38,826 nucleotides of DNA, from UHGV virus genome UHGV-0114133; one strand, written 5' to 3'. Below, one piece after another: positions 10,998 to 38,826 of the stretch. A program made the position numbers and the translations under genes. Every line of letters starts with the position of its first letter. Positions within the stretch are counted from its first letter, which is position 1. The notes beneath the pieces were generated by a model. That model saw nothing but the letters and a program-made list of their open reading frames with translations, ran no database searches and had not been told where the DNA came from. Origin of the DNA: a virus.

Positions 10998-11004
10998 TAC
11001 CATG

Positions 11005-11034: not shown

Positions 11035-11231
11035 GGGCTACACATAATAAGCATCGTAAAACGTAACGCCCACCGAGCCGCTGCCAGCTGCATGAAGCGC
11101 TGACAAAGTTCGCTGTCGATTGCACTGGCCCGAGCCAGTTCGAATACCTCTAAGCCGAGTTTAACCACTTTGTGGCCTGGCGCTGCTGGGTCAAAATTGG
11201 CGTATCAAAAGAAGTCTAAAGGAAAGAAAAC

Positions 11232-21239: not shown

Positions 21240-21252
21240 GGCTATTGTATGA
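20995..21252 (+). CDS. hypothetical membrane-anchored Pro/Thr-rich protein (85 aa)
   Basis: Predicted TM segment MAYGVILATLAAITVPA; stop overlaps next ATG. Confidence 0.4.
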   Translation: MENFQRNRLKPMAYGVILATLAAITVPAGQSLLMPGTATSTATTALQMTPLPERPPVSLDGMLMDTIPARPATPDLPSAVTEAIV

Positions 21253-21437
21253 AATGGAACTTCCAGAAATTCACCTTGATGATTGTTGGCTTTACCGTTT
21301 TTTTGTTTAGCGGCTGGATCATGAATCTGGTGAAACTTGTGAACGATGGCGATCTCCAGTCTCATGCCGGAGTGACACTTGCGCGTGTCGTGGGAGTTTT
21401 CATTGTTCCAGTGGGCGGCATCCTCGGGTTCTTTTGA
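21249..21437 (+). CDS. small membrane protein (62 aa, two predicted TM segments)
   Basis: Hydrophobic segments FTLMIVGFTVFLFSGWIM and VGVFIVPVGGILGFF. Confidence 0.5.
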   Translation: MKWNFQKFTLMIVGFTVFLFSGWIMNLVKLVNDGDLQSHAGVTLARVVGVFIVPVGGILGFF

Positions 21438-21461: not shown

Positions 21462-21478
21462 AAAACAAATTGTTTAGA
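21462..21478 (+). promoter_or_regulatory. Cassette leader motif (AAACAATTTGTTT core)
   Basis: aaaacaaattgtttaga. Confidence 0.4.
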
Positions 21479-21503
21479 CAAATGATTAATGAGAGTTAAC
21501 AAC

Positions 21504-21527
21504 AAGGGCCGCTGACGGCCCTTTTGT
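21504..21527 (+). terminator. Hairpin terminator or attenuator
   Basis: AAGGGCCGCTGACGGCCCTT followed by TTGT; lies between the motif and the 21544 start. Confidence 0.45.
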
Positions 21528-21543
21528 ACTGAATGGAAAACGT

Positions 21544-22359
21544 ATGTTTGAGGTAACTGCACACGCTCCCAGCACCACAGGCTTACATGCCAGGCCATCG
21601 ATGACCAGTCAGGAGATCGCCGAAATGGTCGGCAGTCGCCATGACAGCGTAAAGCGTACCATTGAAAGACTCGCTAAATCCGGCGTTATTACTTTTCCAC
21701 CAATGGTGGAAAAGCCCACTGCCGGGCGTCCGGCTACGTTTTACTTATTCGAAGCCGAACAGGGTAAGCGCGACAGTATCGTTGTCGTGGCACAGCTTTC
21801 TCCTGAATTTACCGCACGCCTTGTTGATCGGTGGAGAGAGCTTGAGTCCATGTTTGCCGACCGCGGAACGCCTGCTATTCCACGTACCTATAAAGAGGCT
21901 CTGGTTCATTTGTTACACCAGGTCGAGGAAAACGAGCGTCTGGAGAAAGAGAACGAAGCGTTAGGCGTTGCACTATCTAACGCAAAACCAAAAGCCATTC
22001 TCATGGACACCATTTGCGGCACTGCTGATGAGCTTTATGGGCTGAATGAAGCTGGTCGCATTCTCGGCACGTCCGGGGCTGTTCTGGGTTCGCTGATGGA
22101 CTCGCTGGGTGATGTGTATGTTAAGCGCAAATACACCACAGTTAGTCGCCAGTTTCTCAAGATCTTCATTGACCGTGGATATGGCAAAAACGTTGTCATC
22201 GGAAACGGTCGCAACCAGGCCAAGTTCACCTTTAAAGGGCTTTGCTTTGCAGCTGTGAAACTAATTGCAGCCGGGTTGATTGCCTCCAGCGCCATTGAAT
22301 ATGAGCCGTGTCGTGAGCATGTCGAACGTGCAATGAAGGAATCCAAACGTCTTCATTGA
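21544..22359 (+). CDS. Phage regulatory protein, Rha/antirepressor-like
   Basis: N-terminal helix-turn-helix-like SQEIAEMVGSRHDSVKRTIERL resembling the Rha family; C-terminal domain unassigned. Confidence 0.5.
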   Translation: MFEVTAHAPSTTGLHARPSMTSQEIAEMVGSRHDSVKRTIERLAKSGVITFPPMVEKPTAGRPATFYLFEAEQGKRDSIVVVAQLSPEFTARLVDRWRELESMFADRGTPAIPRTYKEALVHLLHQVEENERLEKENEALGVALSNAKPKAILMDTICGTADELYGLNEAGRILGTSGAVLGSLMDSLGDVYVKRKYTTVSRQFLKIFIDRGYGKNVVIGNGRNQAKFTFKGLCFAAVKLIAAGLIASSAIEYEPCREHVERAMKESKRLH

Positions 22360-22419
22360 CCGTCAGTATGGACGTCCACCTTTATGTAGCGTTTGGCCAC
22401 CTTTTCAGTCACGTCACAA

Positions 22420-22449
22420 TAACACAATTGAGAAAACAACTTGTTTAAA
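22420..22449 (+). promoter_or_regulatory. Cassette leader motif
   Basis: taacacaattgagaaaacaacttgtttaaa, 19 nt upstream of ATG 22468. Confidence 0.45.
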
Positions 22450-22467
22450 AACATAAGGAAAAAACAC

Positions 22468-23028
22468 ATGTGCGAAAAATGCAAAAAAACTAATGCCAAA
22501 GTTGAAAGCGTGATTAAAAAAGTTGGTGCGGCCGAACTGGTTGAGATCATGGGTCTTGTGGTTGGTCACGAAGACGACGCCTCCCCTATTGACCGCCTTT
22601 TCAGCGTTCTCAAGTTCTCAAGCATGATTGATGATCCGATTGAAATTGTGATGCTGGCGCGTCATTTCGGCGAAGCGTATCTGGAAGAGAAAGAACGCGC
22701 CGACAAACTTCAGGCAACTCTGGAAATGGTAAGCAAGCCGAAGTGCTCACCGGATTCAGTCAAGGCAGATGAAACCAACGCCAGCAAAGATCGTGAAATC
22801 GCCGGGTTGAAGTCTTCTCTGGCGATGTTGCTGGCCGCCTTCAAACTGATGTCTTCCCAGGCTGGATTCAAAATGCCTGAGCTGAACAGCGACGATCCGA
22901 TGGCCGTTCGCCAGCTGCTGGGGGCAATGGCCGACCAGCTTGACGACACCAAGAGCCGTCTTGAAGACATGATGCGCGAGCTGACCCACCGCCACAACCT
23001 GAACAAACAGCCGCACAAGATGAGGTAA
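22468..23028 (+). CDS. hypothetical protein (186 aa) with N-terminal CxxC
   Basis: RBS GGAAAAAACAC before ATG; track start 22441 rejected. Confidence 0.55.
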   Translation: MCEKCKKTNAKVESVIKKVGAAELVEIMGLVVGHEDDASPIDRLFSVLKFSSMIDDPIEIVMLARHFGEAYLEEKERADKLQATLEMVSKPKCSPDSVKADETNASKDREIAGLKSSLAMLLAAFKLMSSQAGFKMPELNSDDPMAVRQLLGAMADQLDDTKSRLEDMMRELTHRHNLNKQPHKMR

Positions 23029-23049
23029 ATATTTATATATTAATAATAA

Positions 23050-23095
23050 TTCCTTAAGGTGGCTACAGCCTCTTAAGGAATTATTTGGCTTTTTC
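23050..23095. terminator. Bidirectional terminator between convergent genes
   Basis: TCCTTAAGG...CTTAAGGAA stem followed by TTATTTGGCTTTTT. Confidence 0.5.
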
Positions 23096-23122
23096 GCAAA
23101 TGATAAGAATTATATCGTTGTT

Positions 23123-23566
23123 TTATAAACCTGGGTCAATAATCTCATCTATGAAGTCGCGAGATTTATCGTTGAATCCCAACGCGGAGAAACGCATAAC
23201 AAGATCATTATTTTGAATCGTAACATAGTCTTTGCGCATAAATTCTCCAAAAATATATTTGATACCCTCTTTAGTGTAGGCATACCAATACATTCCTATC
23301 GTACGATCACAATTCTGATACCAACGAAGTTTCACGCCGTTGACATACATGCCTTGAGCTACGCCACTACCTGAACACTTAAAGAAATTCCGCGAAGTAA
23401 GGTAGATGTTTGCATTGCCATCCGACGTTCTTTCTAGGAACACATACCAATTACCGTCGTCTGACATTACAACAGGTCTTCCTGTTTCTGTTAAATACCA
23501 TCCTTCGGCATTAGCTGATGCTAAGCTACTGATAAACAAAAATACTGCGATAACTAACCTGTGCAT
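23123..23566 (-). CDS. secreted protein with signal peptide (147 aa)
   Basis: MHRLVIAVFLFISSLASANA signal-like N-terminus; Trp/Tyr-rich mature part. Confidence 0.6.
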   Translation of the reverse strand: MHRLVIAVFLFISSLASANAEGWYLTETGRPVVMSDDGNWYVFLERTSDGNANIYLTSRNFFKCSGSGVAQGMYVNGVKLRWYQNCDRTIGMYWYAYTKEGIKYIFGEFMRKDYVTIQNNDLVMRFSALGFNDKSRDFIDEIIDPGL

Positions 23567-23726
23567 TAATGTGTCCTTTTAATTCTGTTATATGCAGATT
23601 GAGATGCTTTGCTACGTAATTAATATTATATCTAGGTTGAGGTCAAGAATCTAATACTAGGAATTGTCAACATTAATTCTATTAACGCACCCTAATAAAA
23701 AGTATTGGTTTCTTTTAAGTTTTTTA

Positions 23727-23760
23727 GATAATAACACCAACAAGAAAACAATTTGTTTAA
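23727..23760 (+). promoter_or_regulatory. Cassette promoter/leader motif (type I)
   Basis: gataataacaccaacaagaaaacaatttgtttaa, 11 nt upstream of ATG 23771. Confidence 0.5.
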
Positions 23761-23770
23761 TGGTGCAATC

Positions 23771-25456
23771 ATGAATACAGCCCTTTCCATCATTGACGCT
23801 TTCACCCCAAACACTGATATCGACTACCGGCAGGAAATGAATGTTATCCACGAAATTGTGGCCGAATGCGAGAAAGAGATTGCGTTCATGAATAAGGTTC
23901 ACGACTTCGTTTATGGCGACGAACGCCACAACATGATTAACCGTCTACTGCGGCTCAATCACCGGCCGGACGACGAGCGAACACGCTTTAACAGAACCTG
24001 GCTGGACAAAGTCGACCTGGAATGGGTGAAACAAAATATCTGGGCCGAGTACTGGAAGAAGGTCACGGATATGACCAACGTTCTGCTGATCATGCCAGCA
24101 TCCCGCCGCGACGAGTGGCGTGAACAGTTTATCGAGGGCAAGCAGGAAACGATCAAGACTGACAGAACTGGCTATCAAATGAAGGTTAAAGAGTTCGTTG
24201 GTGTACCTGAGTTCAAAGCAGAAACGGTCATACCAACGATGCTTAATTTGCTGAATGACAGGCACAAATATCTCTCTGAGCGCGTGTATGGCTTGTTTAA
24301 GGCGTTGAGTCCTGCTCACAAGACCAATAAGACGAACGGCTTCAGCGAGCGTCTGATCATCGCCGACTGCATTTCCGATTTCTGGCGGGACAGCGTCAGC
24401 GTTAACTACCGGAAAGAGGATTACATAGACGACCTGCGCGTCATGTTGCATTTCTTTGCACACAAAGAATTTATCACCATCAACCGCACGGCCGAGATGC
24501 TGTCAGCTGCGTATCGAGCAAATGACTGCCAGACCGGCGACTGGATGAATGTCGACGGAAACCTGATGCGTGTGAAGATGTTTAAGAACGGCAACGTTCA
24601 CTTTGAAATACATCCTGACGTAGCCTGGAAGCTGAATGAGGTGCTGGCTTACAGTATGCCCGCTGCAATTCCGGCTCCATGTCGTACTGCGCCCAAAACA
24701 CGGGCACCAAAACAGTTCGGGTTAATCCAGAAGACGATCTCCGAGCCGGTGCGTACTGCGCTTTGCGACGGGCGATCTGGCAATGACAAACGCGTATGGT
24801 ACTTCTCTGATTCCGGTCTCCAGAAGTCACAGGTGGAAGAGCTGGAGCGTACACTGAGCTTTATTGGCGGCGTGCAGGAGAACAAGCACTGGCAGTTCCC
24901 GTATGAGATCGGCCATACGCTCAATACGATTGTGGCCACCGGCTTAATACCGGATACAAAATCACACCAGTTCTACCCTACCCCGCGTTTGATAGCGGAG
25001 TACGTTGCCAGAGCCATCGAGCTGAAGCCAGGTGAGAAGCTGCTGGAGCCTGAAGCCGGGCGCGGAGATCTGCTGGCCTGCATCGACGCCAATCCGGAAG
25101 ACGTTACCTGCATAGAAGTCGCACCTCTCTTCGCTGATATCCTGCTTGGCAAGGGGTACACAAATACGGTCTGCTGCGACTTCATGAAGTGGTCTGAGGA
25201 CAACGCAGGTTATCAGTTCGACAAAATCGTTATGAACCCGCCCTACTCTCTTGGCCGTCACAGAGAGCATACGCTGGCCGCGCTGGAGCATCTTAAAGTC
25301 GGCGGGCGACTGGTGGCTGTACTGCCGGGTGATGCGCCAGTTCTGAACTGGATGTCGCTGGATAATTACGTTTATGCCAAAGGGAAGTCGTTTACTGACG
25401 AGTTTGAAGACACCGGGATTACTGTCAGCGTATACGTTTTTAAACGCGTTAAATGA
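23771..25456 (+). CDS. DNA methyltransferase (N6-adenine type) with about 430-aa N-terminal domain of unknown function
   Basis: C-terminal AdoMet motif LEPEAGRGDLL and catalytic NPPYS. Confidence 0.7.
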   Translation: MNTALSIIDAFTPNTDIDYRQEMNVIHEIVAECEKEIAFMNKVHDFVYGDERHNMINRLLRLNHRPDDERTRFNRTWLDKVDLEWVKQNIWAEYWKKVTDMTNVLLIMPASRRDEWREQFIEGKQETIKTDRTGYQMKVKEFVGVPEFKAETVIPTMLNLLNDRHKYLSERVYGLFKALSPAHKTNKTNGFSERLIIADCISDFWRDSVSVNYRKEDYIDDLRVMLHFFAHKEFITINRTAEMLSAAYRANDCQTGDWMNVDGNLMRVKMFKNGNVHFEIHPDVAWKLNEVLAYSMPAAIPAPCRTAPKTRAPKQFGLIQKTISEPVRTALCDGRSGNDKRVWYFSDSGLQKSQVEELERTLSFIGGVQENKHWQFPYEIGHTLNTIVATGLIPDTKSHQFYPTPRLIAEYVARAIELKPGEKLLEPEAGRGDLLACIDANPEDVTCIEVAPLFADILLGKGYTNTVCCDFMKWSEDNAGYQFDKIVMNPPYSLGRHREHTLAALEHLKVGGRLVAVLPGDAPVLNWMSLDNYVYAKGKSFTDEFEDTGITVSVYVFKRVK

Positions 25457-25476
25457 TAGGTAAATGCTTACCTAAT
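25455..25476. promoter_or_regulatory. Palindromic operator-like site
   Basis: gataggtaaatgcttacctaat overlapping the methyltransferase stop. Confidence 0.45.
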
Positions 25477-25518
25477 ATATGTAAGAATATAGTGACTATA
25501 TGATAAGAGAAAAAACAC

Positions 25519-26208
25519 ATGAGCAATCTTCCGTTAGAGCGTTTTAACGTCAAAAGCCATGCCGACTTTCCTTTCAAATTTGTAATGAGAGGTTATGCAG
25601 AGGAAGCAGTAGGCCAGATCATCATTGACAAAGGCATTGTTAAGTTTGAAGGGGATTATGATGAATCCGCGAAAACATTCATAGACTTCGTTGCTAAACG
25701 TTGGAGCGAGCAATGGAGAGACCTGGAAAAACGTGCTCGTAAATTTGATACATTCATGTCTTCAATTGATACAGCAAAAACGGCTCTGGCTGCGGGTACT
25801 CCGTTAGATTTGGAGTCTCTGTTTAAAGGTGAAATGGCCTCTGCGATGTTCGCAACCATGTTTGCCGGTGAGTTTGTTCGTAGCGGGGCCAGAAACTACC
25901 TGGAGCTGGGGTACGACGTTCCTGAAATGGGTGAGTTTACCGTCACCATTCAACGCAAAGAAGGTAAGACTCCTGGCGAACGTATCGCTGAACTTGAGGC
26001 CGTTGTGGATCAGCGTAACGGCGAGTGCGTCCGTTTGATTAATGAACGTGATGCGCTGCGCGAAGAGCAGCTAAACAAAGGCTCGAACACGCGCGCGACC
26101 GCAGACATCTACTTCCAGTTGGTTGAGGAATGCCAGATCCCGCCAGGTGGCTCTTTGGTCGAGTTCGTTCGCGAATTGCAGGAGAAAGCAGAGAGGTGCG
26201 CGGCATGA
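25519..26208 (+). CDS. hypothetical protein (229 aa)
   Basis: RBS-like GAGAAAAAACAC before ATG; no recognised motif. Confidence 0.6.
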   Translation: MSNLPLERFNVKSHADFPFKFVMRGYAEEAVGQIIIDKGIVKFEGDYDESAKTFIDFVAKRWSEQWRDLEKRARKFDTFMSSIDTAKTALAAGTPLDLESLFKGEMASAMFATMFAGEFVRSGARNYLELGYDVPEMGEFTVTIQRKEGKTPGERIAELEAVVDQRNGECVRLINERDALREEQLNKGSNTRATADIYFQLVEECQIPPGGSLVEFVRELQEKAERCAA

Positions 26209-26444
26209 ATGATCTGCTTGTCGAGCGAGTCTCCGCTTTTGTTAAGTCCCCGCTGAATAATCCCCTCACCCGCGGTGAGCAGATGGAGCTGGCAAGGTGG
26301 TTTCTGCGTATCCATGAGCAGATGGAAGTTTTTAAACAGTTGCCGGATCTGCCCATTACAGACGGCCAAATTCAGTGTGCCACTTCAGTACGGTCGACGA
26401 TGACAACGACGCAAACCTGCTTTTCGTCAAATCCGAAATCATAA
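26205..26444 (+). CDS. hypothetical protein (79 aa)
   Basis: ATG overlaps upstream stop (ATGA). Confidence 0.45.
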   Translation: MNDLLVERVSAFVKSPLNNPLTRGEQMELARWFLRIHEQMEVFKQLPDLPITDGQIQCATSVRSTMTTTQTCFSSNPKS

Positions 26445-26490
26445 AGTTGCGCAGGGAGAGAGAGAAATCGACGCAGAGCAGGCCCGCAAT

Positions 26491-26706
26491 ATGTGGGACG
26501 AGGCAGAAAACGCTGATGACGTAAAAGAAAGTTGCTGCTGTTTCGGTGTCGGTAACGAACTGCTGAGTCTGTTTGGTGACGATCCGTGGTATGCCGGTTG
26601 GCCAACGGTGCCAAACCCCAGATACCAATACCTGGAACGTATCATGAACGCGGTACGTGATGGGCTGAAAGAGCTTCACAATCAGATGAGAGAAGCAATC
26701 GGTTAA
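26491..26706 (+). CDS. hypothetical protein (71 aa)
   Basis: ORF with protein-like composition; start uncertain. Confidence 0.4.
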   Translation: MWDEAENADDVKESCCCFGVGNELLSLFGDDPWYAGWPTVPNPRYQYLERIMNAVRDGLKELHNQMREAIG

Positions 26707-26744
26707 GTGCTATAGTCAGGCGCTTTTATATTTATGGAGTGAAT

Positions 26745-27443
26745 ATGAAAAATATCCTACTGGCATCATTGTTGGTGGCATCGCCGGCTGTATTTGCAGC
26801 CAGCTTTGACTGCCAAAAGGCTTCGGCAGAAATCGAACACAAAATCTGCGATAACGAACGCCTGTCAAAATTAGACGAACAACTTAGCTCTACCTATTCC
26901 AACGCACTCAAAGCAAACCCGGGGGACGCAGACGCCTTAAAGACGGTTCAGCGTCAATGGGTAAGTATGCGTGGAAAACTCACTGGTGATAAGGCTCTGG
27001 AGCTGGCTTATCTAATCCAAATTAATGGCCTCAAGAGTTTGGATGGTTCGGCCAGCACTGCGGTGGTCAATGAGACACCAAAGCCTGTGCAGAAACAGCC
27101 TGAAGTTCAGGAAAAGATAAGCAAGGCAGACACAAAGCAGGCTGAGAGCGGTAAAAAGCTAACTCTGGAGTCATTCCGAGCTAAGTATATTGAAGTTGAC
27201 GGTGAATACTACAGCACGACATCCCTTCCCAGAGGGAGTTCGTTCTTGTTCACCTGCGCAAGTCGTATCGCAGATGACCAGGTGAATATTTGGAAGAAGG
27301 TGGCAGCCAAAGAGGGCAAGATCGATCTCTTCTTTGAACTTGAGAATCGAATACATACCGCAATGCTGAATGCCAATTTTCAGAAGCTAAATAGTGATTT
27401 AACTAAAACAGGCATTTGCGATCTGATTACTGCTGTTCCGTAA
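26745..27443 (+). CDS. periplasmic protein, LprI/DUF1311-like N-terminal domain
   Basis: Signal peptide MKNILLASLLVASPAVFA, then SFDCQKA...E..IC.N..L..LD..L...Y pattern resembling the lysozyme-inhibitor LprI family. Confidence 0.55.
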   Translation: MKNILLASLLVASPAVFAASFDCQKASAEIEHKICDNERLSKLDEQLSSTYSNALKANPGDADALKTVQRQWVSMRGKLTGDKALELAYLIQINGLKSLDGSASTAVVNETPKPVQKQPEVQEKISKADTKQAESGKKLTLESFRAKYIEVDGEYYSTTSLPRGSSFLFTCASRIADDQVNIWKKVAAKEGKIDLFFELENRIHTAMLNANFQKLNSDLTKTGICDLITAVP

Positions 27444-27450
27444 GCCAGAT

Positions 27451-27471
27451 AAGGCCACTATTTGTGGCCTT
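27451..27471 (+). terminator. Hairpin of the AAGGCCAC...GTGGCCTT terminator family
   Basis: aaggccactatttgtggcctt directly after the 26745 gene; no U-tract. Confidence 0.4.
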
Positions 27472-27488
27472 AAACAATTTGTTTAATT
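27471..27488 (+). promoter_or_regulatory. Cassette leader motif
   Basis: taaacaatttgtttaatt. Confidence 0.4.
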
Positions 27489-27787
27489 AGTGGTGTAATT
27501 ATTGGAATCCCAGGCGAACTAAATCCATTGGGCAGAACAGATCTTCCACACCTTCGATAGACACGCAGTCAGAGCGGCGTAATTGTTCTTCTGATTTGCC
27601 TTCCCCACTGATTTCTCTGATTACTCCCGTTGCGCCATTCATTGCCACCATGACATGGCTGCCGATAGTGATAGCATTACGGTTTCGATCATACGCCTTT
27701 ATCGTTTTCTCCTTTCACATGGGGCAAATCAGGTTTCAAAAATTGCCGTTTTCCATGTATATGCGATTTGCAAAATATCAATTTCCT

Positions 27788-27801
27788 AAACAAATTGTTT
27801 T
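27788..27801 (+). promoter_or_regulatory. Cassette leader motif (core only)
   Basis: aaacaaattgtttt. Confidence 0.35.
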
Positions 27802-27887
27802 CACCAGCTAGTTATTACACACAGGCGAAGTTGACCGCGCTTCATATAAATATCACTGTTTATACATACAGTGTATAAGAGGAAAAA

Positions 27888-28154
27888 ATGGGCGGAAAAG
27901 ACTCAAGCTATCAGATCGTTTACAGAGGTGAGACGCTCGAAAACTTTAAACCGGGGCAGTATGTCTTCTTTCAACGAGCGAAGGAGTATGGCGGCGGATA
28001 TTGGTTGGGCAGGACTCATGAAGATGGGTTCGAGTTTTTGCTGGAGGAGCCAACCTCGCTGGGAAGAGGTTTTGAGTTTCTGATAACTCACTCGAGCGTG
28101 GAGGCCAGATTTATGGAGTTCGTCGACGATGCGGACGACTTCAAACTCACCTAG
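27888..28154 (+). CDS. hypothetical small protein (88 aa)
   Basis: GAGGAAAAA RBS before ATG. Confidence 0.55.
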   Translation: MGGKDSSYQIVYRGETLENFKPGQYVFFQRAKEYGGGYWLGRTHEDGFEFLLEEPTSLGRGFEFLITHSSVEARFMEFVDDADDFKLT

Positions 28155-28196
28155 TCATCCCTTAAACATCTTGTTTTCTGCCTTTCGTTATTTGAG

Positions 28197-28232
28197 ATAA
28201 TAATACCAATAAGAAAACAAATTGTTTAAGGA
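28197..28232 (+). promoter_or_regulatory. Cassette promoter/leader motif (type I)
   Basis: gataataataccaataagaaaacaaattgtttaagg, ending 8 nt before ATG 28240. Confidence 0.5.
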
Positions 28233-28239
28233 GTTGATC

Positions 28240-28476
28240 ATGTTCGGAACCGCAAAAGACATCATCGAAAAGCTGGAGAACTACCCAGAAGACGAGCCGC
28301 TGCTGATGGTGATGTGGCACAAGGAAGATGTAGGTGAAGTGCGACCAGACCTGACTGACGAACAGTGCGTTCAGGTTTTGCGAAAAATCAAAGAGTGCCA
28401 TGACACCAGCGTCGGCGTGAATTGGGATGTCATTTCTGACACGGCCAACATTCTGTTTCCAAAGGAGAAGGCATGA
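28240..28476 (+). CDS. hypothetical small acidic protein (78 aa)
   Basis: AGGAG RBS then ATG at 28240; track start 28222 is TTG inside the motif. Confidence 0.55.
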   Translation: MFGTAKDIIEKLENYPEDEPLLMVMWHKEDVGEVRPDLTDEQCVQVLRKIKECHDTSVGVNWDVISDTANILFPKEKA

Positions 28477-28793
28477 TGCTGAAAATCACCGAATCGTATA
28501 AGACGGCGGTGATCAGCACCGCCCACGTAACGGCAGCGGATTCAGAACGGCTACCCATTGCCTGCTTCGACCCACTTACTGATCGCGGGTTGAATTGGTT
28601 ACACGGTACACAGTACGGCTGGATTGTTCGTGCTGGAATGCGAGGGAATGACTGGAAGGAAGAACTGCGTGAGTACGGCATTTCCCAAGAGGCGATCTCC
28701 AACATACAGACCATACTGGATGACGGCTTTGACGTGGTTCACTTCGATTGCGACGCCGAGCTGGTGGATGGGCTACCTGCATGGGAATGGTGA
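28473..28793 (+). CDS. hypothetical protein (106 aa)
   Basis: ATG overlaps upstream stop (ATGA); RBS AAGGAGAAGG. Confidence 0.55.
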   Translation: MMLKITESYKTAVISTAHVTAADSERLPIACFDPLTDRGLNWLHGTQYGWIVRAGMRGNDWKEELREYGISQEAISNIQTILDDGFDVVHFDCDAELVDGLPAWEW

Positions 28794-28869
28794 TCGCCCA
28801 CTCGTTGAGTAATCATGTCATATAAGCGAAGAAAATTGGTAACATAGTACCGCTTTTTAATCTGATGGA

Positions 28870-29439
28870 ATGGATGTGATGGAAACCCAGAACCAACAAA
28901 CAAAACCTCTGAATAATGCTTATGCGTGGCTTCTAGCTTTACTGCCTCTCTTCTTTGGAGCACCGCCAGATGAGTATTTGAATTATGCAATAGTGATAGG
29001 TGGAGTCGCTGGACTCGGCTTTCTGGTGGCTGACAGAATGGCATTGTCTGATGCAGGGTATGAACCACCGGCCATCCTGTGGGGAGTATTTCTCCTTCCG
29101 GTCTATCTCTGGAAACGTGCCACCGTTACAAAAGGCAGTCGACTTCCTTTTATCGTAATCGTCGCGTTGCTTGCTGGTAACATCTTCATCGGTATCCCAC
29201 ACCAGGAAGAGGTTGCTCTTGAAGAAGCGGCTTGTCCTCTCGTAACGACCATTCTGAAAGAGAATAACGGAACCACAGCGCCGAAATGTATGAAGGTGAC
29301 AATTCAGGACAAGGTGACGGACAAGTTCTATAAAGCGACGGCTACGCTGGATAACGGCAACGACATAAACGTTACTCTGGAACTGACCGGCGAAAGAAAC
29401 TTTTATGTGCGCGTTCCGGATGCCTATCTGAACAACTAA
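28870..29439 (+). CDS. integral membrane protein (189 aa)
   Basis: Several hydrophobic segments (LLALLPLFFGA, IVIGGVAGLGFLVA, ILWGVFLLPVYLW, FIVIVALLAGNIFIGI). Confidence 0.55.
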   Translation: MDVMETQNQQTKPLNNAYAWLLALLPLFFGAPPDEYLNYAIVIGGVAGLGFLVADRMALSDAGYEPPAILWGVFLLPVYLWKRATVTKGSRLPFIVIVALLAGNIFIGIPHQEEVALEEAACPLVTTILKENNGTTAPKCMKVTIQDKVTDKFYKATATLDNGNDINVTLELTGERNFYVRVPDAYLNN

Positions 29440-29783
29440 CGGCTGCAACTCGTTGATATTGGCGGTCACAAATTGAGGATTTCTATAAGAGTCCGTTGAT
29501 CGCCACTTTCCCCACCACCCTACCCCACTCAATCCCAGGCGTGACAAGGCATTTAAGCCAATTACACCCATAAGAAAACAAATAAATAACACATCAACGT
29601 AAAGTCAACGCTTTCCCCTGATTTGGTCTAAAAAGTTGATGTTTTCGCACGCCATCTCTTATACCCAAAATCCTGTGTGCCAGAATCCATCTCCCCGCGA
29701 CCAAAGCGTCAAAAACGACTCGTGATACCACCCAAAAACAGACACGCTCAGAAGCGCTCCCGTTGCGTTATATTGGGCATCTA

Positions 29784-29816
29784 AACAAGTTGTTTTCAGG
29801 CATAAGAAAACAAGTT
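29784..29816 (+). promoter_or_regulatory. Cassette leader motif, two adjacent partial copies, with no gene downstream
   Basis: aaacaagttgtttt then agaaaacaagtt. Confidence 0.35.
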
Positions 29817-29867
29817 AACCACACCCACAGGAAACCCAGAGACGCCATTACCCACAATCCCGGAAAC

Positions 29868-29959
29868 ACCCACCTCTTCCTGTCAGGCTACCGAAAAGAC
29901 CCACCTCTTTGCCCCAGGCTACAGAGCACCCACCTAATCTCCCCAGGCAACCGAGAACG
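29868..29959 (+). repeat. Tandem triplet of about 30-bp C-rich repeats
   Basis: cccacctcttcctgtcaggctaccga / cccacctctttgccccaggctacaga / cccacctaatctccccaggcaaccga. Confidence 0.6.
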
Positions 29960-30536
29960 CAGCTCGCGCACGCAAACCCCTACACGCCATTACCCAATAC
30001 ACGGAGAAGAACAGCCAGAACGAAACCCCGGACAAACCCAGACCAGAACAGGAACCGTCGCAATCTCGTTTACCCACCATTACCCCGAAAGAGAGCGCAA
30101 ATTCCTGAATAGCAGGGAACGTCATTACTTCATATGCGGAGAACAACAAAAGCGCCCTACTGCCATTACCCACACTTCCATCAATTCACGTAAACGAAGA
30201 GAAAAGCGCACCTGCCATTACTCCATACACGGAGAAGAACAATCACCAAAACGACGAGAACAACCCAGACGAAAACACAGAGAAGAACCACCTCAAGAAG
30301 AACGAAACCACATATGCCGGTAGAAAGAACAAACCACCCATTTCACCCACAGGAATAGTCGCCGTATTGAGCGTTATCAGAGAGAAGGTTTATGCCCACA
30401 TAAGAGAGAAAATTCGTGGGAGGTATAAGTGGGAAGGGAAGGAGGGGTATCGCCACTTTCTTCGTATAAATTCAAGCCATAGTTTTCATCCCCCGTAACG
30501 TCCCTTTCCACCCCTTCGGTCAGCCTTCGGGCCATC

Positions 30537-30680
30537 CAGGGAAAAGGCCATGTCCCTTTTCAGAAACGGGAGCGTCGCCGCAGGGAAAAGGCTGGAGGTT
30601 TTTCAGGGAAACGGTGGGAATCCCGCTATACGAACCGGGAAAAGGCTGGCTGCCGGTCGGGAAACGGGTACATCCCGGTA
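30537..30680 (+). repeat. Tandem triplet of about 45-bp G-rich repeats
   Basis: cagggaaaaggc...ttttcagaaacgg / cagggaaaaggctgg...tttttcagggaaacgg / ccgggaaaaggctgg...cgggaaacgg. Confidence 0.55.
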
Positions 30681-30988
30681 CAGAGCGAGGGACGACTGCG
30701 GGAGCGGTGCGGGAAATCTTCGGGAGTGCGCCTTACTCTTCACTCGCCTGAAAATCGCGAGGGAGTGTCGTTCCCTCTCGTGCAGCTACTGGACTCCATT
30801 CTGCCAGACCATCATCGGGTCTCAAGCGATTTCAGTAGGTTTTCGGGGAGAAGGATATTCTGCCCACCAGCCCCGCGGCGCGCGTAGAGCAGAATATCGT
30901 AAATACTGGCTCCCGTGTCGTTCCCGGATATTCACTACCCAGCCTGGCTTTCCCGACATAAAATCCTTTTTCGCCTTTGTCTTATTGC

Positions 30989-31023
30989 GATAATAACACC
31001 AACAAGTAAACAACATGTTTAGA
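30989..31023 (+). promoter_or_regulatory. Cassette promoter/leader motif (type I)
   Basis: gataataacaccaacaagtaaacaacatgtttaga. Confidence 0.5.
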
Positions 31024-31052
31024 CGTTATATAAACGAAGTGAGGATGAAGAG

Positions 31053-31271
31053 ATGATTAAGATGCCTGTGACGGTTGAGGTGTGGGGCGTGGATTCCCTG
31101 GCTGAGTGTCTGGATGCCGTGGGGCCGGAGTTGTACCGCAAGTTGTGGTCGTTCGTCCCGGCAGAAGGGGAATCGCCCAAAGGGAAGGATATCTGGCACC
31201 TGCTGAGTGAAGATGAAAAGCGGGAGCTGGTGGACGCGGTACACAGCGAGTTCCCGGACGACGAAGATTAA
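31053..31271 (+). CDS. hypothetical small acidic protein (72 aa)
   Basis: GAGGA RBS 7 nt before ATG; Asp/Glu-rich. Confidence 0.55.
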   Translation: MIKMPVTVEVWGVDSLAECLDAVGPELYRKLWSFVPAEGESPKGKDIWHLLSEDEKRELVDAVHSEFPDDED

Positions 31272-31276
31272 GAGTG

Positions 31277-31300
31277 AGGCCACCAGCACGGTGGCTTTTG
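31277..31300 (+). terminator. Rho-independent terminator
   Basis: GCCACCAGCACGGTGGC followed by TTTT. Confidence 0.6.
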
Positions 31301-31371
31301 TCGCTATTAACCTCCGGGGCAGCGCAGCACCGTAACGATATACTTTGTGGCCGTTTTCTTACTGGTATTGT

Positions 31372-31402
31372 TTACGCAATTCAGAAAACAACATGTTTAA
31401 GG
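31372..31402 (+). promoter_or_regulatory. Cassette promoter/leader motif (type II)
   Basis: ttacgcaattcagaaaacaacatgtttaagg; the upstream 60 bp is homologous to 31831-31890. Confidence 0.5.
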
Positions 31403-31410
31403 ATTGCTTT

Positions 31411-31740
31411 ATGTTTGCAAATATCGACATCAACCAAATCAAGAAAATGACTCAAAAAGAGTTTGACCAGTTTTATGAGTTAGAAGGTTGGTCTTCCACG
31501 CTGATCAATTCGCGCTGGGTGCTTGAGCTGATGACTCGTGATGATGCTCCTGCTTTGATTATTTGCGACATGGGTGAAGATGCTGACTTTATGGATATGA
31601 GCGAATTTTGTGTGGACACATACAACCGCAGCCAGAAGTACTACTTCACATGCGATAGCGAGAATGACGTGATTTCTAAGCTCTATCTTCACCTTGTCCA
31701 GCATTGGGACGTGCAGGAATTCCTTGAGTTATTCGCGTAA
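31411..31740 (+). CDS. hypothetical acidic protein (109 aa)
   Basis: AAGGA RBS before ATG 31411; alternative ATG 31393 lies inside the motif. Confidence 0.55.
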   Translation: MFANIDINQIKKMTQKEFDQFYELEGWSSTLINSRWVLELMTRDDAPALIICDMGEDADFMDMSEFCVDTYNRSQKYYFTCDSENDVISKLYLHLVQHWDVQEFLELFA

Positions 31741-31863
31741 GCCCAACCAAAGCCAGCACCGCCTGCTGGCTTAACTTCTCTGTAGCCGCAGGGAAGAACC
31801 ACCTTTAGATAATTCATGTGCCTGAGCAATATGCTTTGTAGCCGTTTTTACACTGGTATTATT

Positions 31864-31893
31864 TACGCCATTGAGAAAACAATTTGTTTACGG
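31864..31893 (+). promoter_or_regulatory. Cassette promoter/leader motif (type II)
   Basis: ttacgccattgagaaaacaatttgtttacgg. Confidence 0.5.
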
Positions 31894-31900
31894 AGTGGTG

Positions 31901-32212
31901 ATGAATACTTCATTGGTGCTGGGTCTTGCTGAAGGCCAGGAGAGAAAAGAAAAACCAACCTTAATGGGGCATCTCACATTGCTGGATATCGTAGCGAATG
32001 GGACTTCTATCCGTCTGTTTCGTGAAAAAGCCATTACCTTCGACGCGGGCAATTTTACGCGCTATGTGATGGTAGTTCGTCGCCAGCGTGGAAGAGGGTG
32101 GATGTCGGTCCAGAAAATGTGGCCAGAGGACCAGCTTGAACTGGCGCTGATGGAAGCCAACCGTGTCGCCCAACAAGAGATCCAACGAGCGTCTGTTCAG
32201 GCGGTAGCTTAA
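31901..32212 (+). CDS. hypothetical protein (103 aa)
   Basis: GGAGTGG RBS before ATG 31901. Confidence 0.55.
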   Translation: MNTSLVLGLAEGQERKEKPTLMGHLTLLDIVANGTSIRLFREKAITFDAGNFTRYVMVVRRQRGRGWMSVQKMWPEDQLELALMEANRVAQQEIQRASVQAVA

Positions 32213-32246
32213 ACATGTGCAAGCAGTAGTTAGTCGAATGTACGAC

Positions 32247-32276
32247 AGCCCCGCCAATCCTTCGGGGCTTTTTTGT
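32247..32276 (+). terminator. Rho-independent terminator
   Basis: AGCCCCGCCAATCCTTCGGGGCT followed by TTTTTT. Confidence 0.65.
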
Positions 32277-32297
32277 ATTGTAAGTACTTACTTATGA
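32277..32297. promoter_or_regulatory. Palindromic operator-like site
   Basis: attgtaagtacttacttatga, about 35 nt upstream of the 32334 gene. Confidence 0.45.
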
Positions 32298-32333
32298 TAA
32301 TAAAATTAAAAATTAAACACTAAGGAGAGTGAA

Positions 32334-32729
32334 ATGACCGTTAAACGCGAAAATCTGACCCTGGATATGTATTATGCATCAGAGACGGAAAATGGAGACA
32401 AAGTTGCAAAAATTACAATTGTGCTACGCGATAATGCCTCCGGCGAAGAAGTTCACACCAGTACCTTAACTCGCACCGGCGAGGCCACAAAGGGGAAATA
32501 TTCGGTGCGTTACCAAAGCATCAGTAATGCTTCTGACCCTTTACTGATAAAACTGGAAACTCATTTCCGTGGCGCGGATCAGACGTTGTTTGAAAATTTG
32601 ATGAAAAAGGTCGATGCGGTTTATACATCGAGTTTAAATACCAATAGTACCTGGATGGGACAACACGGTCTGCGAATAATCTCCGGCGAAAAGATCGACA
32701 CCATTGTCCCTGAAAGCGTATTCGCTTAA
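32334..32729 (+). CDS. hypothetical protein (131 aa)
   Basis: TAAGGAGAG RBS before ATG. Confidence 0.6.
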   Translation: MTVKRENLTLDMYYASETENGDKVAKITIVLRDNASGEEVHTSTLTRTGEATKGKYSVRYQSISNASDPLLIKLETHFRGADQTLFENLMKKVDAVYTSSLNTNSTWMGQHGLRIISGEKIDTIVPESVFA

Positions 32730-32741
32730 TCCTCTTTGAAT

Positions 32742-32766
32742 GGCGCGTACCCCGCGCCATTTTCTT
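32742..32766 (+). terminator. Rho-independent terminator
   Basis: GGCGCGTACCCCGCGCC followed by ATTTTCTT. Confidence 0.6.
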
Positions 32767-32772
32767 ATGCCC

Positions 32773-32793
32773 GATAACAATTTGTTTTCTGCC
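32773..32793 (+). promoter_or_regulatory. Cassette leader motif (core variant)
   Basis: gataacaatttgttttctgcc. Confidence 0.4.
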
Positions 32794-32846
32794 TTATCTG
32801 ATTTGTGAAAATGATTTCACTGAAGCAACTTAATAAGGAAACCATC

Positions 32847-33221
32847 ATGGGACTTGATATCTATATCGAGACGCAGCCTAAAAACGATCTGAATAACGAG
32901 GCATCCAGAAAGCAGGTTGCTTACTTCCGTAAGTTCAATGCGCTCGTTGGGTGGATGGAGCGCAACGTAGGTGAAGTCGAAAATTGTGAGCTTTTAGAAT
33001 TAACGATGAATGACATTTGTTTTCTGAAGGCTCATTTGATGCACATAAACGAAAGTAATTGCGAAGAGTACTTGCCTACCCAGGAAGGTTTTTTCTTCGG
33101 CAGTCAGGAGTACGATGAAGGTTACTGGCATGATGTGGGGGAGTTGAAAGAGATTGTGGAAGATCTGATTAAGAACCACGACTTTCACAATAATAGACTG
33201 ACCTTCTGCGCCTGGTGGTAA
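32847..33221 (+). CDS. hypothetical acidic protein (124 aa)
   Basis: AAGGA RBS 7 nt before ATG 32847. Confidence 0.55.
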   Translation: MGLDIYIETQPKNDLNNEASRKQVAYFRKFNALVGWMERNVGEVENCELLELTMNDICFLKAHLMHINESNCEEYLPTQEGFFFGSQEYDEGYWHDVGELKEIVEDLIKNHDFHNNRLTFCAWW

Positions 33222-33223
33222 AT

Positions 33224-33367
33224 ATGGGCGATTTCAAGAAACGCCTGAAGGAGAGAGCCGAGATGGTCAGAAAGCGAAACGCCTCTTCTGTCATAAGATA
33301 CGCAAGGCAGTTTAGTCGCAACAACAAATCAGTTGAGGAAAAGATCCTTAGCGTAATCGGGCGATAA
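33224..33367 (+). CDS. small basic protein (47 aa)
   Basis: Below track cutoff; ATG 2 nt after upstream stop; followed by family hairpin at 33373. Confidence 0.3.
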   Translation: MGDFKKRLKERAEMVRKRNASSVIRYARQFSRNNKSVEEKILSVIGR

Positions 33368-33372
33368 TTATT

Positions 33373-33396
33373 AAGGCCACCAGCATTGGTGGTCTT
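33373..33396 (+). terminator. Hairpin of the AAGGCCACC...GGTGGCCTT terminator family
   Basis: aaggccaccagcattggtggtctt. Confidence 0.45.
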
Positions 33397-33505
33397 AAAT
33401 GACTTTTAATAACCGAAGGTTAGTTTGAAACCTGGCTATCAACTTCCAGAACCTTTCTTGTGTATTCAGCCTGTATTAACTTCTTTTATGCCTTATCTAC
33501 ACTGC

Positions 33506-33540
33506 GATAATTACACCAACAAGAAAACAATATGTTTACG
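33506..33540 (+). promoter_or_regulatory. Cassette promoter/leader motif (type I)
   Basis: gataattacaccaacaagaaaacaatatgtttacg. Confidence 0.5.
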
Positions 33541-33556
33541 CAGTGAGGATATGCTC

Positions 33557-33838
33557 ATGACTGATTTCACCATTACCCCTAAAGCACAAAATGTATTCCT
33601 TGAATCATGGCTGGACTTGCCGGAAACAGAACAGCAAGAAATGGATCATGTGGAATATGACGAGCAGGTAAGCACGCGATTCTTCCACTTTGAGGGCTGC
33701 GTTTACGACATTGCCGACTTCATGCGAGATGACCGCTTCCCTGAATGGCACGCAAGCTATCCACTAAACGCCTTCGCCATGCTGATGATCCGTGTGGATG
33801 ATTCAGGGGATACCATCGACATCGGTCTGCTCCACTAA
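33557..33838 (+). CDS. hypothetical acidic protein (93 aa)
   Basis: GAGGA RBS 7 nt before ATG 33557 (alternative ATG 33551). Confidence 0.55.
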   Translation: MTDFTITPKAQNVFLESWLDLPETEQQEMDHVEYDEQVSTRFFHFEGCVYDIADFMRDDRFPEWHASYPLNAFAMLMIRVDDSGDTIDIGLLH

Positions 33839-33843
33839 AGAGT

Positions 33844-33867
33844 AAGGCCACCAATGCTGGTGGCCTT
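33844..33867 (+). terminator. Hairpin of the AAGGCCACC...GGTGGCCTT terminator family
   Basis: aaggccaccaatgctggtggcctt. Confidence 0.45.
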
Positions 33868-33871
33868 AAAT

Positions 33872-33960
33872 GACCATCCTGTTTCCCGCAGGCTAAAAAC
33901 ACCAACCTCTTACCTCCAGGCAACCGACAAACCCACCTGTTCCCGTCCGGCTACCGCAAC
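33872..33960 (+). repeat. Second tandem triplet of about 30-bp C-rich repeats (paralogous to 29868-29959)
   Basis: ccatcctgtttcccgcaggctaaaaa / ccaacctcttacctccaggcaaccga / cccacctgttcccgtccggctaccg. Confidence 0.6.
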
Positions 33961-33989
33961 TTTCCACTTTGACGCCTTATTCGTACAAC

Positions 33990-34028
33990 GATAATTAACA
34001 CCAACAAGAAAACAATTTGTTATTTACG
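33990..34028 (+). promoter_or_regulatory. Cassette promoter/leader motif (type I)
   Basis: gataattaacaccaacaagaaaacaatttgttatttacg. Confidence 0.5.
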
Positions 34029-34042
34029 ATAAGGAATTAATC

Positions 34043-34525
34043 ATGAATTTTATCGCTACTGTAAACGCACCCGCACATGGCAATATCGCTGTAACGTTCT
34101 CTGACATTGAAAAACGAGTACTTGGTGCATGGCGCGACAATGAGACGGTAGAACTGTCAGCACAAGAAAAATGCATTATTGCACGCGACATCATTGGCAA
34201 TCGTCGTTACTCGCGGGTATTTGAGAAAGCATATGTGGTAAATTCTGGATTCGGAACGTTCGTCTTTCCGGTGCGCTCCGGGCGATTCTGCCAGTCCAAG
34301 CTGATTGAGTTCGCTACGCAGATTTCTGTCTGGATTAAAACTCAATCGTCGTTCAAATTTTCCGACGATGAAGCAGTATCGCAGGGGATGCGGATCGCCA
34401 ACAATGCAATAAAATGCAAAAACATTACGTATGCCGCTGGCGTTGACACATGGAAACTGTTTTGCGCTAACTTTATGCTGAATGTATACGCAAGCAACCG
34501 CATCCACATCCTTGATGGCGTGTAA
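34043..34525 (+). CDS. hypothetical protein (160 aa)
   Basis: AAGGA RBS before ATG; flanked by C-rich and G-rich repeat blocks. Confidence 0.6.
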   Translation: MNFIATVNAPAHGNIAVTFSDIEKRVLGAWRDNETVELSAQEKCIIARDIIGNRRYSRVFEKAYVVNSGFGTFVFPVRSGRFCQSKLIEFATQISVWIKTQSSFKFSDDEAVSQGMRIANNAIKCKNITYAAGVDTWKLFCANFMLNVYASNRIHILDGV

Positions 34526-34572: not shown

Positions 34573-34720
34573 CGCAGGGAAATTTTCAGAAACGGCGAGG
34601 AACGCATTCATGAGCCGAAGGGAAACGACCATGAAATTTTCTGGAAACGGCGGGGGTCGCCTTTATGTAGAAAACTGAGCGGGAGAAACCCGGAATCGCG
34701 CCAGAAATTGCGTAGCGGCG
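34573..34720 (+). repeat. Second block of G-rich repeats (paralogous to 30537-30680)
   Basis: cagggaaattttcagaaacggcgagg / aagggaaacgaccatgaaattttctggaaacggcgggg. Confidence 0.5.
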
Positions 34721-35414: not shown

Positions 35415-36065
35415 TTACGCTTTGAAAGCATCAGCCAGATAGTTATAAAAATCATTTTTAACGAAGCGATATTGCTGTGATCCGTTTTTCGCTGCACCCA
35501 TTCCTTTGATTTTTTCGACCAGTCCCAGACGTTCGCAAAGATTGATAAGCTGGTTGGCTTGAGTGTATCCTGCGTCTAATTTTATTTCGTTGGCTTTTTT
35601 CGCTTCATTCATTAAATCGAAAACAGCGCCATTGGTGAACGTGTCGATCTCGTCGTTAATCATATCGATTAATGCGAATACACGAGATCCTGACATATCA
35701 GCGACGGAATAAACACATTTACCAGCTTTAATGGATTTAACCAGATAAACCAGTTTTTCCAGAGAATAACTATTAGTCATTGCTTCGCGGAAAAACGCTT
35801 CAGGTGCTTGTTTGCTTGCTTTAATCGCGTAGTAAAAGACACCAGCTAATTTCTCATCATTAACAGCGTTTAAAACGTTGTTGGTGAAGTATGCTAGTTT
35901 GGTAGACGCTGCAAGCATGTTAGCTTTATCCGCTTTTGTGTGTGTACCATTTTTATAATGATTGTTATAAGTCTGAGTAGCGTTGTTGGCTGCAACTTGC
36001 AATTCATTAGCGATAACTACAGCAGCGTCGATGATAGCTTTTTTAGAGATAGCAATGTTAGACAT
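35415..36065 (-). CDS. hypothetical protein (216 aa)
   Basis: Long ORF in AT-richer region; no recognised motif. Confidence 0.55.
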   Translation of the reverse strand: MSNIAISKKAIIDAAVVIANELQVAANNATQTYNNHYKNGTHTKADKANMLAASTKLAYFTNNVLNAVNDEKLAGVFYYAIKASKQAPEAFFREAMTNSYSLEKLVYLVKSIKAGKCVYSVADMSGSRVFALIDMINDEIDTFTNGAVFDLMNEAKKANEIKLDAGYTQANQLINLCERLGLVEKIKGMGAAKNGSQQYRFVKNDFYNYLADAFKA

Positions 36066-38693: not shown

Positions 38694-38826
38694 GTGCTCC
38701 TTTGTGTCTGGACGAGCACATGATGAATTTTAAAAGGAGGGGAAAAAGTGGAAGTTTACGGCAGCCGTTTGAGAATATCGGCCAGATCTTCTTTGGTCAT
38801 ACCCGAGTTTTCGTAAATCTTCATGA

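Follow-up and report, generated by a model that had tools for sequence, protein, structure and literature searches.

We analysed UHGV virus genome UHGV-0114133, a stretch of 38,826 nucleotides (nt) to which we refer at its full length as the window, and found that a 13-base palindrome, AAACAA-N-TTGTTT, recurs at its promoters in a fixed geometry. This palindrome is probably the DNA operator of a repressor that is encoded by the element itself and silences the promoters of the phage-plasmid. The repressor would bind the site as a symmetric oligomer and block host RNA polymerase, such that about twenty sigma-70 promoters of the element would be under the control of one protein. At most of these promoters an operator copy, O1, would lie 13-14 nt past the -10 hexamer; at some of them a second copy, O2, or the sole copy, would lie over the -35 region. 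In this way accessory, replication, nucleotide-metabolism and packaging units would be kept off in the plasmid-prophage state.

The window is 88% identical to Salmonella phage SSU5 across two thirds of its length and 94-97% identical to Escherichia coli plasmids such as pCUVET18-789.1. Parts of it are shared by 797 plasmids of the PLSDB collection from Klebsiella, Escherichia, Enterobacter, Yersinia, Salmonella and other genera. Judged by these identities the window is an SSU5-like phage-plasmid of E. coli. Such elements are widespread in Enterobacteriaceae and form a medically relevant family. Our gene model combined the list of open reading frames (ORFs) with homology to SSU5 and gave a coding fraction of 77%. 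In the gene order repA is followed by the nucleotide-metabolism genes and these by a block of small cargo genes; minus-strand genes then extend towards the ParB-like/terminase region. Neither the 13-mer nor regulation in the SSU5/pHCM2 phage family was found in the literature searched, which did not cover one 2026 bioRxiv preprint on a phage-plasmid promoter mechanism.

The motif was searched with AAACAATTTGTTT, allowing up to 2 mismatches, and dinucleotide shuffles of the sequence served as background. We found 14 sites (28 strand-hits) spanning 21463-34022, while the shuffles averaged 2.4 strand-hits and did not exceed 8. The cores start at 21463, 22434, 23746, 27472, 27788, 28164, 28215, 29783, 31008, 31386, 31877, 32775, 33525 and 34010. 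They correspond one-to-one to the 14 coordinates of an earlier note, in which at least 14 dispersed copies of a regulatory motif had been described from the letters of the window. The exact palindrome, with a free central base between two six-base halves, is present in 8 of the 14 copies, and the remaining 6 are one base off. All 14 cores are intergenic, for which the probability at the given coding fraction is about 1e-9. A weight matrix was trained on the 14 window copies, and matches inside genes were counted only at a score of at least 17; none was obtained, neither in the window nor in the whole SSU5 genome. The complete SSU5 genome contains 21 sites, again all of them intergenic (21/21). 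The motif is borne out as a dispersed, non-random regulatory element.

The sequence requirements of the site were obtained from 212 unique contexts pooled from the window, SSU5, E. coli phage Cyrano, Klebsiella phage pJN2-26 and IMG/VR contigs. All twelve half-site positions are 86-100% conserved and each base occupies the central position in 25% of the contexts. Outside the core, AGA is favoured on one flank only. Dyad symmetry, conserved halves and a free spacer together are the hallmarks of an operator, and the symmetric core fits the dimeric DNA-binding regulator that had been suggested in the earlier note.

The placement of the core relative to the promoter is equally regular. In 9 copies a -10 hexamer precedes the core at a distance of 13-14 nt. 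Over the pooled contexts the T that is most conserved in the -10 hexamer ends 14 nt before the core, with a preference for A 7 nt before it, from which we infer a transcription start that places the core at about +8 to +20. Many units carry TGn in front of the hexamer (TGcGATAAT, TGaGATAAT, TGgTATTAT), which gives them the look of extended -10 promoters. A -10 role of the upstream hexamer, as originally proposed, is thereby supported, and the division of the copies into two types holds as well: type I copies carry GATAAT 13-14 nt upstream of the core (23727, 28196, 30989, 33506, 33990) and have a 33-nt block in common, while type II copies combine the same core with a different upstream half (TATTGT at 31366, TATTAT at 31857). 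In the O2 class the TTGTTT half reaches into the -35 region (TTGTTTTCTGCC); the O2 copy at 32775 stands by itself, and the one at 28164 is accompanied by a leader copy (28215). Neighbouring sites within 200 base pairs (bp) of each other occur at two distances only, 51 bp (21 unique cases, with divergently oriented flanks) or 25 bp (4 cases, before terS). As the distance between O2 and O1 is always 51 bp, i.e. about five helical turns, both sites would be located on the same helix face, which could allow cooperative binding around the promoter. With the transcription start placed as above, the core lies within the footprint of RNA polymerase (about -50 to +20) at a fixed distance to the -10 or -35 element, as expected for an operator. 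The cargo block as a whole is a row of single-gene units, each consisting of an optional O2, a promoter, O1, a Shine-Dalgarno sequence, the gene and a terminator, with a GC-rich hairpin after each cargo gene.

The copies had been described as lying almost always 8-25 nt upstream of a start codon on the same strand. This holds in similar form for 8 of the 14, which end 11-32 nt before a plus-strand start, and does not hold for the others. Two copies are on the minus strand around a ydfZ-like gene (27472, 27788), two lie upstream of a promoter and overlap its -35 region (28164, 32775), and three have no obvious gene directly downstream (21463, 27472, 29783).

A regulon limited to the accessory genes, as first envisaged, proved too narrow. 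The weight matrix scan of relatives, which had been proposed as a check, gave the 21 sites of SSU5 and the same motif in Cyrano and pJN2-26. The SSU5 sites precede terS (two sites), parA, dnaB, cobT, SSU5_063 and nrdB in addition to cargo genes, and the picture is the same for Cyrano and pJN2-26. Since the motif stands before terS, parA, dnaB, cobT and nrdB in complete relatives, the regulon is genome-wide. Cargo genes with no relation to the window's own are moreover preceded by the same motif. When orthologous promoters are aligned, the core and the -10 and -35 elements are retained and the spacers and flanks diverge. Such conservation of a site in orthologous as well as non-homologous promoters with diverging flanks is again the behaviour of an operator. 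Klebsiella pJN2-26, at a nucleotide identity of about 80%, has the motif in unchanged form, as have lineages in which the identity of the ParG-like protein is down to 48-64%. The same is true of a lineage that shares its homologue of a conserved 216-residue protein (63% identical) with a Serratia quinivorans record; the other core proteins compared in this lineage are 41-88% identical. When we searched distant lineages for an altered operator accompanied by an altered protein, the motif was unchanged everywhere.

Expression in the lysogenic state was taken from the S1 table of PMC9928086, which reports RNA sequencing (RNA-seq) of the related phage Cyrano in E. coli LF82 and not of the window element. 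The motif-preceded Cyrano units are at background in this lysogen: values of 7 for terS, 8 for cobT, 13 for nrdB, 21 for dnaB and 5-25 for CYRAN_101-111 compare to a median of 9.8. The only motif-preceded operon that is clearly expressed contains parA (50) and CYRAN_29 (89). From the position within the footprint, the dyad symmetry and the silence in the lysogen we infer that a steric repressor operator fits best.

As binder of the motif we tentatively propose the 119-amino-acid (aa) protein encoded directly after parA (SSU5_034 = CYRAN_29), whose locus is outside the window. In the relatives a gene for a small Walker-type ParA (CbiA/MipZ Pfam matches) is followed by a gene for 119-129 aa. By its sequence pattern the parA-linked protein resembles a ribbon-helix-helix protein of the ParG/omega type, and it has a basic GRP arm. 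Even where overall identity has dropped to 48%, no change is seen in the putative strand SRTMS or in the beginning of helix 2 (FTRSDVIRAAI), and the basic arm is invariant at most of its residues. Omega and ParG are ribbon-helix-helix partition adaptors that also repress transcription, and the heptads bound by omega are spaced by 7 bp, which matches the 7 bp between the half-site centres of the motif. The motif is present in the parA leader of SSU5, Cyrano, the Klebsiella element and one further lineage, i.e. in every lineage examined. Expression of the par operon alone among the motif-preceded units is as expected for an autoregulated repressor. The partition adaptor would thus have a second role as global repressor, like omega of pSM19035. 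A further extension, in which the partition adaptor is the genome-wide repressor and the roughly 20 palindromes serve at once as operators for the silencing of lytic genes, replication genes and cargo of the anti-defence type, as scattered centromere-like sites and as conserved exchange junctions of cargo cassettes, is doubtful. If it were true, titration of the partition protein would tie both lysis-lysogeny and the expression of cargo to the copy number of the plasmid, beside a separate CI-like switch acting through the second palindrome described below.

A number of observations weigh against the repressor and its proposed identity. Repression was deduced from the position of the sites and one published transcriptome, which is that of a relative and not of this element. 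These promoters have poor -35 hexamers and went uncalled in a scan for the generic promoter consensus, such that the silence in the lysogen could also mean an absent activator. SSU5 was isolated as a plaque-forming phage; it keeps the motif and the par genes yet forms plaques, so that the repressor cannot be an absolute block. All candidate proteins are co-inherited with the motif and comparative genomics does not separate them. For the parA-linked protein, AlphaFold2 returned a predicted local distance difference test score (pLDDT) of 62, a predicted template modelling score (pTM) of 0.22 and no strand, a model too poor for a fold search. The protein has no Pfam match, and an hhalign comparison to a ParG sequence gave an uninformative probability of 0.2%. 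A centromere-like array of half-sites near par was not found, the densest clusters containing 4-5 half-sites.

The other candidate proteins were ranked lower or rejected. Two further genes are expressed in the lysogen at a level similar to that of CYRAN_29, namely SSU5_123/CYRAN_117 (114) and a CI-like Xre repressor (CYRAN_45; 96). The former encodes a ribbon-helix-helix-like protein of 92 aa, of whose homologue the window holds the last 22 codons (38758-38826, minus strand); it was down-ranked as its putative strand positions 8 and 12, predicted to face the DNA, vary among lineages with the same motif. The CI-like protein was rejected as binder: the control region of its gene is free of the motif and carries another palindrome (see below), and SSU5, in which the gene is missing, keeps the motif. 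The HicAB-like pair SSU5_054/055 was judged from its sequence to be a toxin-antitoxin module. Among the cargo proteins and candidates, Pfam and PHROG scans found no DNA-binding families other than Rha/Ant and FljA. Two candidates are silent in the lysogen. The conserved 216-aa protein (35415-36065, minus strand) is restricted to SSU5-like elements (phrog_1513, no Pfam match), and its confident model (pLDDT 84) combines a helical hairpin at the N-terminus with a predicted winged helix at the C-terminus; the protein was down-ranked because its Cyrano orthologue is silent in LF82. Its gene is inverted relative to its neighbours in one distant lineage (L133). The 88-aa protein encoded before terS (SSU5_130) is conserved and has a winged-helix-like sequence pattern, with the LexA DNA-binding domain, far below threshold, as its sole family match.

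These last two proteins are the natural agents of a different scheme, in which the motif is still a DNA site and is read by a regulator of the lytic phase rather than by a lysogenic repressor. Early promoters would then be shut late in infection, and the copies overlapping the -35 region, centred near -41, could activate, a position that is indeed classical for class II activators. The conservation of both proteins (65-95% for the 216-aa and 76-91% for the 88-aa protein) and the succession of the 88-aa gene, two motif copies and terS speak in favour of such a regulator. However, neither gene is expressed above background in the LF82 lysogen (5.9 and 7.8 compared to 9.8), and the motif-preceded promoters are silent there as well. 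The scheme therefore needs promoters that are inherently inactive despite -10 elements of the TGnGATAAT type. In addition, no classical mechanism allows activation from a site at +8 to +20. We consider a lytic-phase regulator unlikely.

That the motif acts in the leader of the messenger RNA (mRNA), as a translational operator or as a processing site for an RNA-binding protein, is improbable. What makes the idea attractive is that 9 of the 14 copies are located in a predicted 5' leader in sense orientation, 8 of them, i.e. those described above before plus-strand starts, next to the Shine-Dalgarno sequence. The motif is A/U-rich and in this resembles the A/U-rich sites of RegA of phage T4, which lie beside the ribosome-binding site of many small early genes; the RegA regulon would be the nearest parallel to such a scheme. 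A candidate reader is also encoded nearby, a clear FljA homologue (36695-37207, minus strand; PF03614, E = 2e-73), and members of the FljA family block fliC translation (PMC2652032). However, the minimum free energy calculated for the core alone is 0 kcal/mol, and the z-scores of the leaders range from -1.1 to +1.1 compared to shuffles. A stem would have to be perfectly conserved around a free centre of 1 nt, while the variant copies alter one half only and thus break one side of the pairing without compensation. The O2 and orphan copies are outside the leader of the next gene, yet keep an exact spacing to promoter DNA. No Rfam match was obtained, and the E. coli fliC leader, a target of repressors of the FljA family, is free of the motif, for which the FljA-like protein was rejected as binder. 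From the missing fold, the one-sided variants, the off-leader copies and the missing Rfam family we conclude that the motif is read as DNA; the RNA hairpin that had been offered as an alternative in the earlier note is thus unsupported.

Reading of the motif by a conserved enterobacterial host transcription factor, which would couple the genes of the element to host physiology, is very improbable, even though the motif is invariant across elements of Escherichia, Salmonella and Klebsiella and the Serratia-linked lineage with most element proteins diverging. To our knowledge no E. coli regulator has this consensus, and the boxes of KdgR, MntR, Zur, OhrR-like proteins, LexA and Fur, as far as we know them, differ from the motif in spacing or orientation. 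A pattern scan of IMG/VR gave many single matches, which in other phages look like chance, so that only loci with multiple sites are informative. These number 52 and are nearly all SSU5-like, only 5 of the 52 being without SSU5 homology. The notion that the repeats mainly arose as promoter cassettes were duplicated or recombined, so that they reflect common ancestry or cassette junctions and no protein is dedicated to binding them, is hardly credible: it could draw on the 33-nt block common to the type I copies, on different cargo genes behind the same cassette and on a ydfZ cassette between two copies where a relative has one, but the spacer between -10 and core diverges, the 6-bp halves are nearly invariant around a random centre, and non-homologous promoters (parA, dnaB, cobT, terS) have only the motif in common, which argues for selection on the palindrome itself.

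An element-encoded repressor with scattered operators has precedents. In phage P1 one repressor of a plasmid prophage, C1, likewise controls many scattered promoters through a short operator that overlaps the promoter, and some promoters have two. The P1 operator, however, is an asymmetric 17-mer (consensus ATTGCTCTAATAAATTT), whereas the SSU5-family site is a symmetric 13-mer of different sequence, for which a C1-type operator was rejected. Furthermore, no C1-like protein was identified, and the SSU5-like family carries a separate CI-like Xre protein with a palindrome of its own. Omega of pSM19035 and ParG of TP228 resemble the parA-linked candidate in being small proteins encoded right after a small ParA, with a site at their own promoter. 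The inverted half-sites 7 bp apart are arranged as two omega heptads, and the sites are scattered over several promoters. Different from this, omega acts at few maintenance promoters through arrays of 7-10 heptads, whereas here about 20 promoters, including lytic and cargo ones, carry one or two palindromes. IncP KorA/KorB and the IncN CUP repeats, which serve the global control of backbone and leading-region genes of plasmids, share with the motif a 12-13-bp palindrome at many promoters of a replicon in fixed position relative to the -35 and -10 elements, and a promoter-operator cassette repeated before small cargo or anti-restriction-type genes. The operators of KorB (TTTAGCSGCTAAA) and KorA (GTTTAGCTAAAC) are unlike the motif; moreover, IncP and IncN are conjugative plasmids and the present element is a tailed phage-plasmid. 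Operator sequence, host element and candidate regulator thus differ from P1 C1, omega, KorA/KorB and CUP, with a regulatory logic that matches them. The motif thereby constitutes a testable regulatory code that defines one regulon and predicts exact operator positions. The regulon includes the block of single-gene cassettes, whose layout resembles the anti-defence leading regions of conjugative plasmids, and the search for the regulator is narrowed to a handful of small conserved proteins.

The individual copies are as follows. The first copy (AAACAAATTGTTT, 21463-21475, no strand assigned) is placed between the stop of ORF 21249-21437 and a terminator hairpin and was treated as an orphan; it is upstream of a Rha/Ant-like gene (21544-22359), and SSU5 has an orthologous copy at 80773. 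On the plus strand, a promoter-operator unit at 22415-22446 consists of the -10 hexamer CACAAT (22415-22420), a 13-nt spacer and the core (22434-22446) and precedes a gene for 186 aa (22468-23028). The type I unit at 23727-23758 (plus) comprises GATAAT at 23727-23732 and the core at 23746-23758; 12 nt further on follows the ATG of a DUF4942 methyltransferase-like gene (23771-25456). In an alignment of orthologues of this unit the core and the -10 are kept and the flanks drift. In the Cyrano lineage (L128 82900-82935 and its relatives L077, L090 and L049) the copy of the DUF4942 gene is without the right half (AAACAAATCACTTCTTA) and is a natural operator-down variant. Between the preceding gene and this unit, at 23029-23700, lies a low-GC insertion that is missing from SSU5 and contains a minus-strand ORF of 147 aa (23123-23566) with a hydrophobic, signal-like N-terminus.

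Two minus-strand units form the boundaries of the ydfZ-like cassette. One, at 27472-27503, is type-I-like, with AATAAT at 27498-27503 and the core at 27472-27484, and leads into a hairpin with no gene downstream. The other, at 27788-27819, has TGTAAT at 27814-27819 and the core at 27788-27800 and lies upstream of the ydfZ-like ORF 27499-27651, which is possibly longer; at full length it is without a canonical start codon. The cassette (27472-27800) is thus flanked by two motif copies, while at this place in Klebsiella pJN2-26 ydfZ is missing and the motif occurs once. Judging by this arrangement of the sequences, the cassette may have been gained by recombination at or within the conserved motif.

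Next on the plus strand, the O2-type copy AAACATCTTGTTT at 28164-28176 overlaps with its TTGTTT half the -35 (TTGTTTTCTGCC) of the promoter at 28196, its centre being 51 bp from the centre of O1. The type I unit itself (28196-28227, plus) has its TGaGATAAT hexamer at 28196-28201 and its O1 core at 28215-28227; a Shine-Dalgarno sequence (AAGGAG) and an ATG at 28240 come next. The unit precedes the genes 28240-28476 and 28473-28793 (DUF5983). A degenerate 15th copy (TTACACCCATAAGAAAACAAATAAAT, 29562-29592, plus), which belongs to repeat family D3, has lost its right half-site. The copy at 29783-29795 (plus) stands at the head of an A/C-rich non-coding repeat region and is followed by a second left half-site, AAGAAAACAAGTT; it is conserved in SSU5 (90740), Cyrano (94601) and pJN2-26 (14662). 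The region itself (29780-30330, A/C-rich on the plus strand) contains GCCATTACCCA 5-7 times and three tandem units of about 30 nt (CACCCACCT..CAGGCTACCGA), which recur at 33900-33960 before the promoter at 33990. It is conserved in SSU5, Cyrano and pJN2-26, with the motif copy at its start, and might be an origin, a centromere or a locus for non-coding RNA. The short repeats GGGAAA(A/C)GG and CAGAAACGG occur in the otherwise non-coding stretches 30537-30650 and 34575-34667.

The remaining units are all on the plus strand. The type I unit at 30989-31020 (TGcGATAAT hexamer 30989-30994, core 31008-31020) precedes a gene for 72 aa (31053-31271). It is followed by the two type II units, one at 31366-31398 (TGgTATTGT hexamer 31366-31371, core 31386-31398) before gene 31411-31740, the other at 31857-31889 (TGgTATTAT hexamer 31857-31862, core 31877-31889) before gene 31901-32212. 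The O2-only unit at 32775-32812, in which the core (32775-32787) overlaps the -35 (TTGTTTTCTGCC) and the extended -10 TGtGAAAAT (hexamer 32807-32812) follows 19 nt on, precedes gene 32847-33221; the same architecture is repeated in SSU5 at 85602 and in pJN2-26 at 10566. Two type I units complete the row, at 33506-33537 (TGcGATAAT hexamer 33506-33511, core 33525-33537) before gene 33557-33838 and at 33990-34022 (GATAAT 33990-33995, core AAACAATTTGTTA 34010-34022) before gene 34043-34525. Outside the row, SSU5 nrdA and nrdB are missing in the window at 10966-11232, where a half-motif remnant (AAGAAAACATG) abuts the start of a MazG-like gene at 11232.

The motif had been set apart from a palindrome in the metabolism block, and the two are indeed distinct. 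The latter is TAGGTAAG-NN-CTTACCTA, which has nine copies in the window (1162, 1489, 5548, 10979, 12254, 18336, 19394, 20590 and 25457) compared to 0.06 expected. A variant at 32281 is situated between the -35 and -10 of cargo gene 32334-32729, which is without the main motif. The second palindrome is also found in the control region of the CI-like Xre gene of Cyrano (42608) and pCUVET18-789.1 (25957). SSU5 has 9 copies and no CI-like Xre gene. The second palindrome is probably the operator of the CI-like repressor and would hence define a second regulon. Both palindromes together suggest a two-repressor circuit that governs plasmid life versus lytic growth.

The motif also differs from the LexA (SOS) box CTGT-N8-ACAG and was rejected as such. 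A perfect LexA box (CTGTTTATACATACAG) does occur elsewhere, at 27856-27871, as the sole SOS box of the window; it stands immediately before a gene for 88 aa (27888-28154; SSU5_103 homologue, no family match), which could be an SOS-inducible antirepressor. In Cyrano, which ciprofloxacin induces (PMC9928086), a LexA-like box also precedes the integrase gene. Finally, the FljA homologue of the window, a phase-1 flagellin repressor by family, is conserved across the SSU5-like family and may silence host flagellin.

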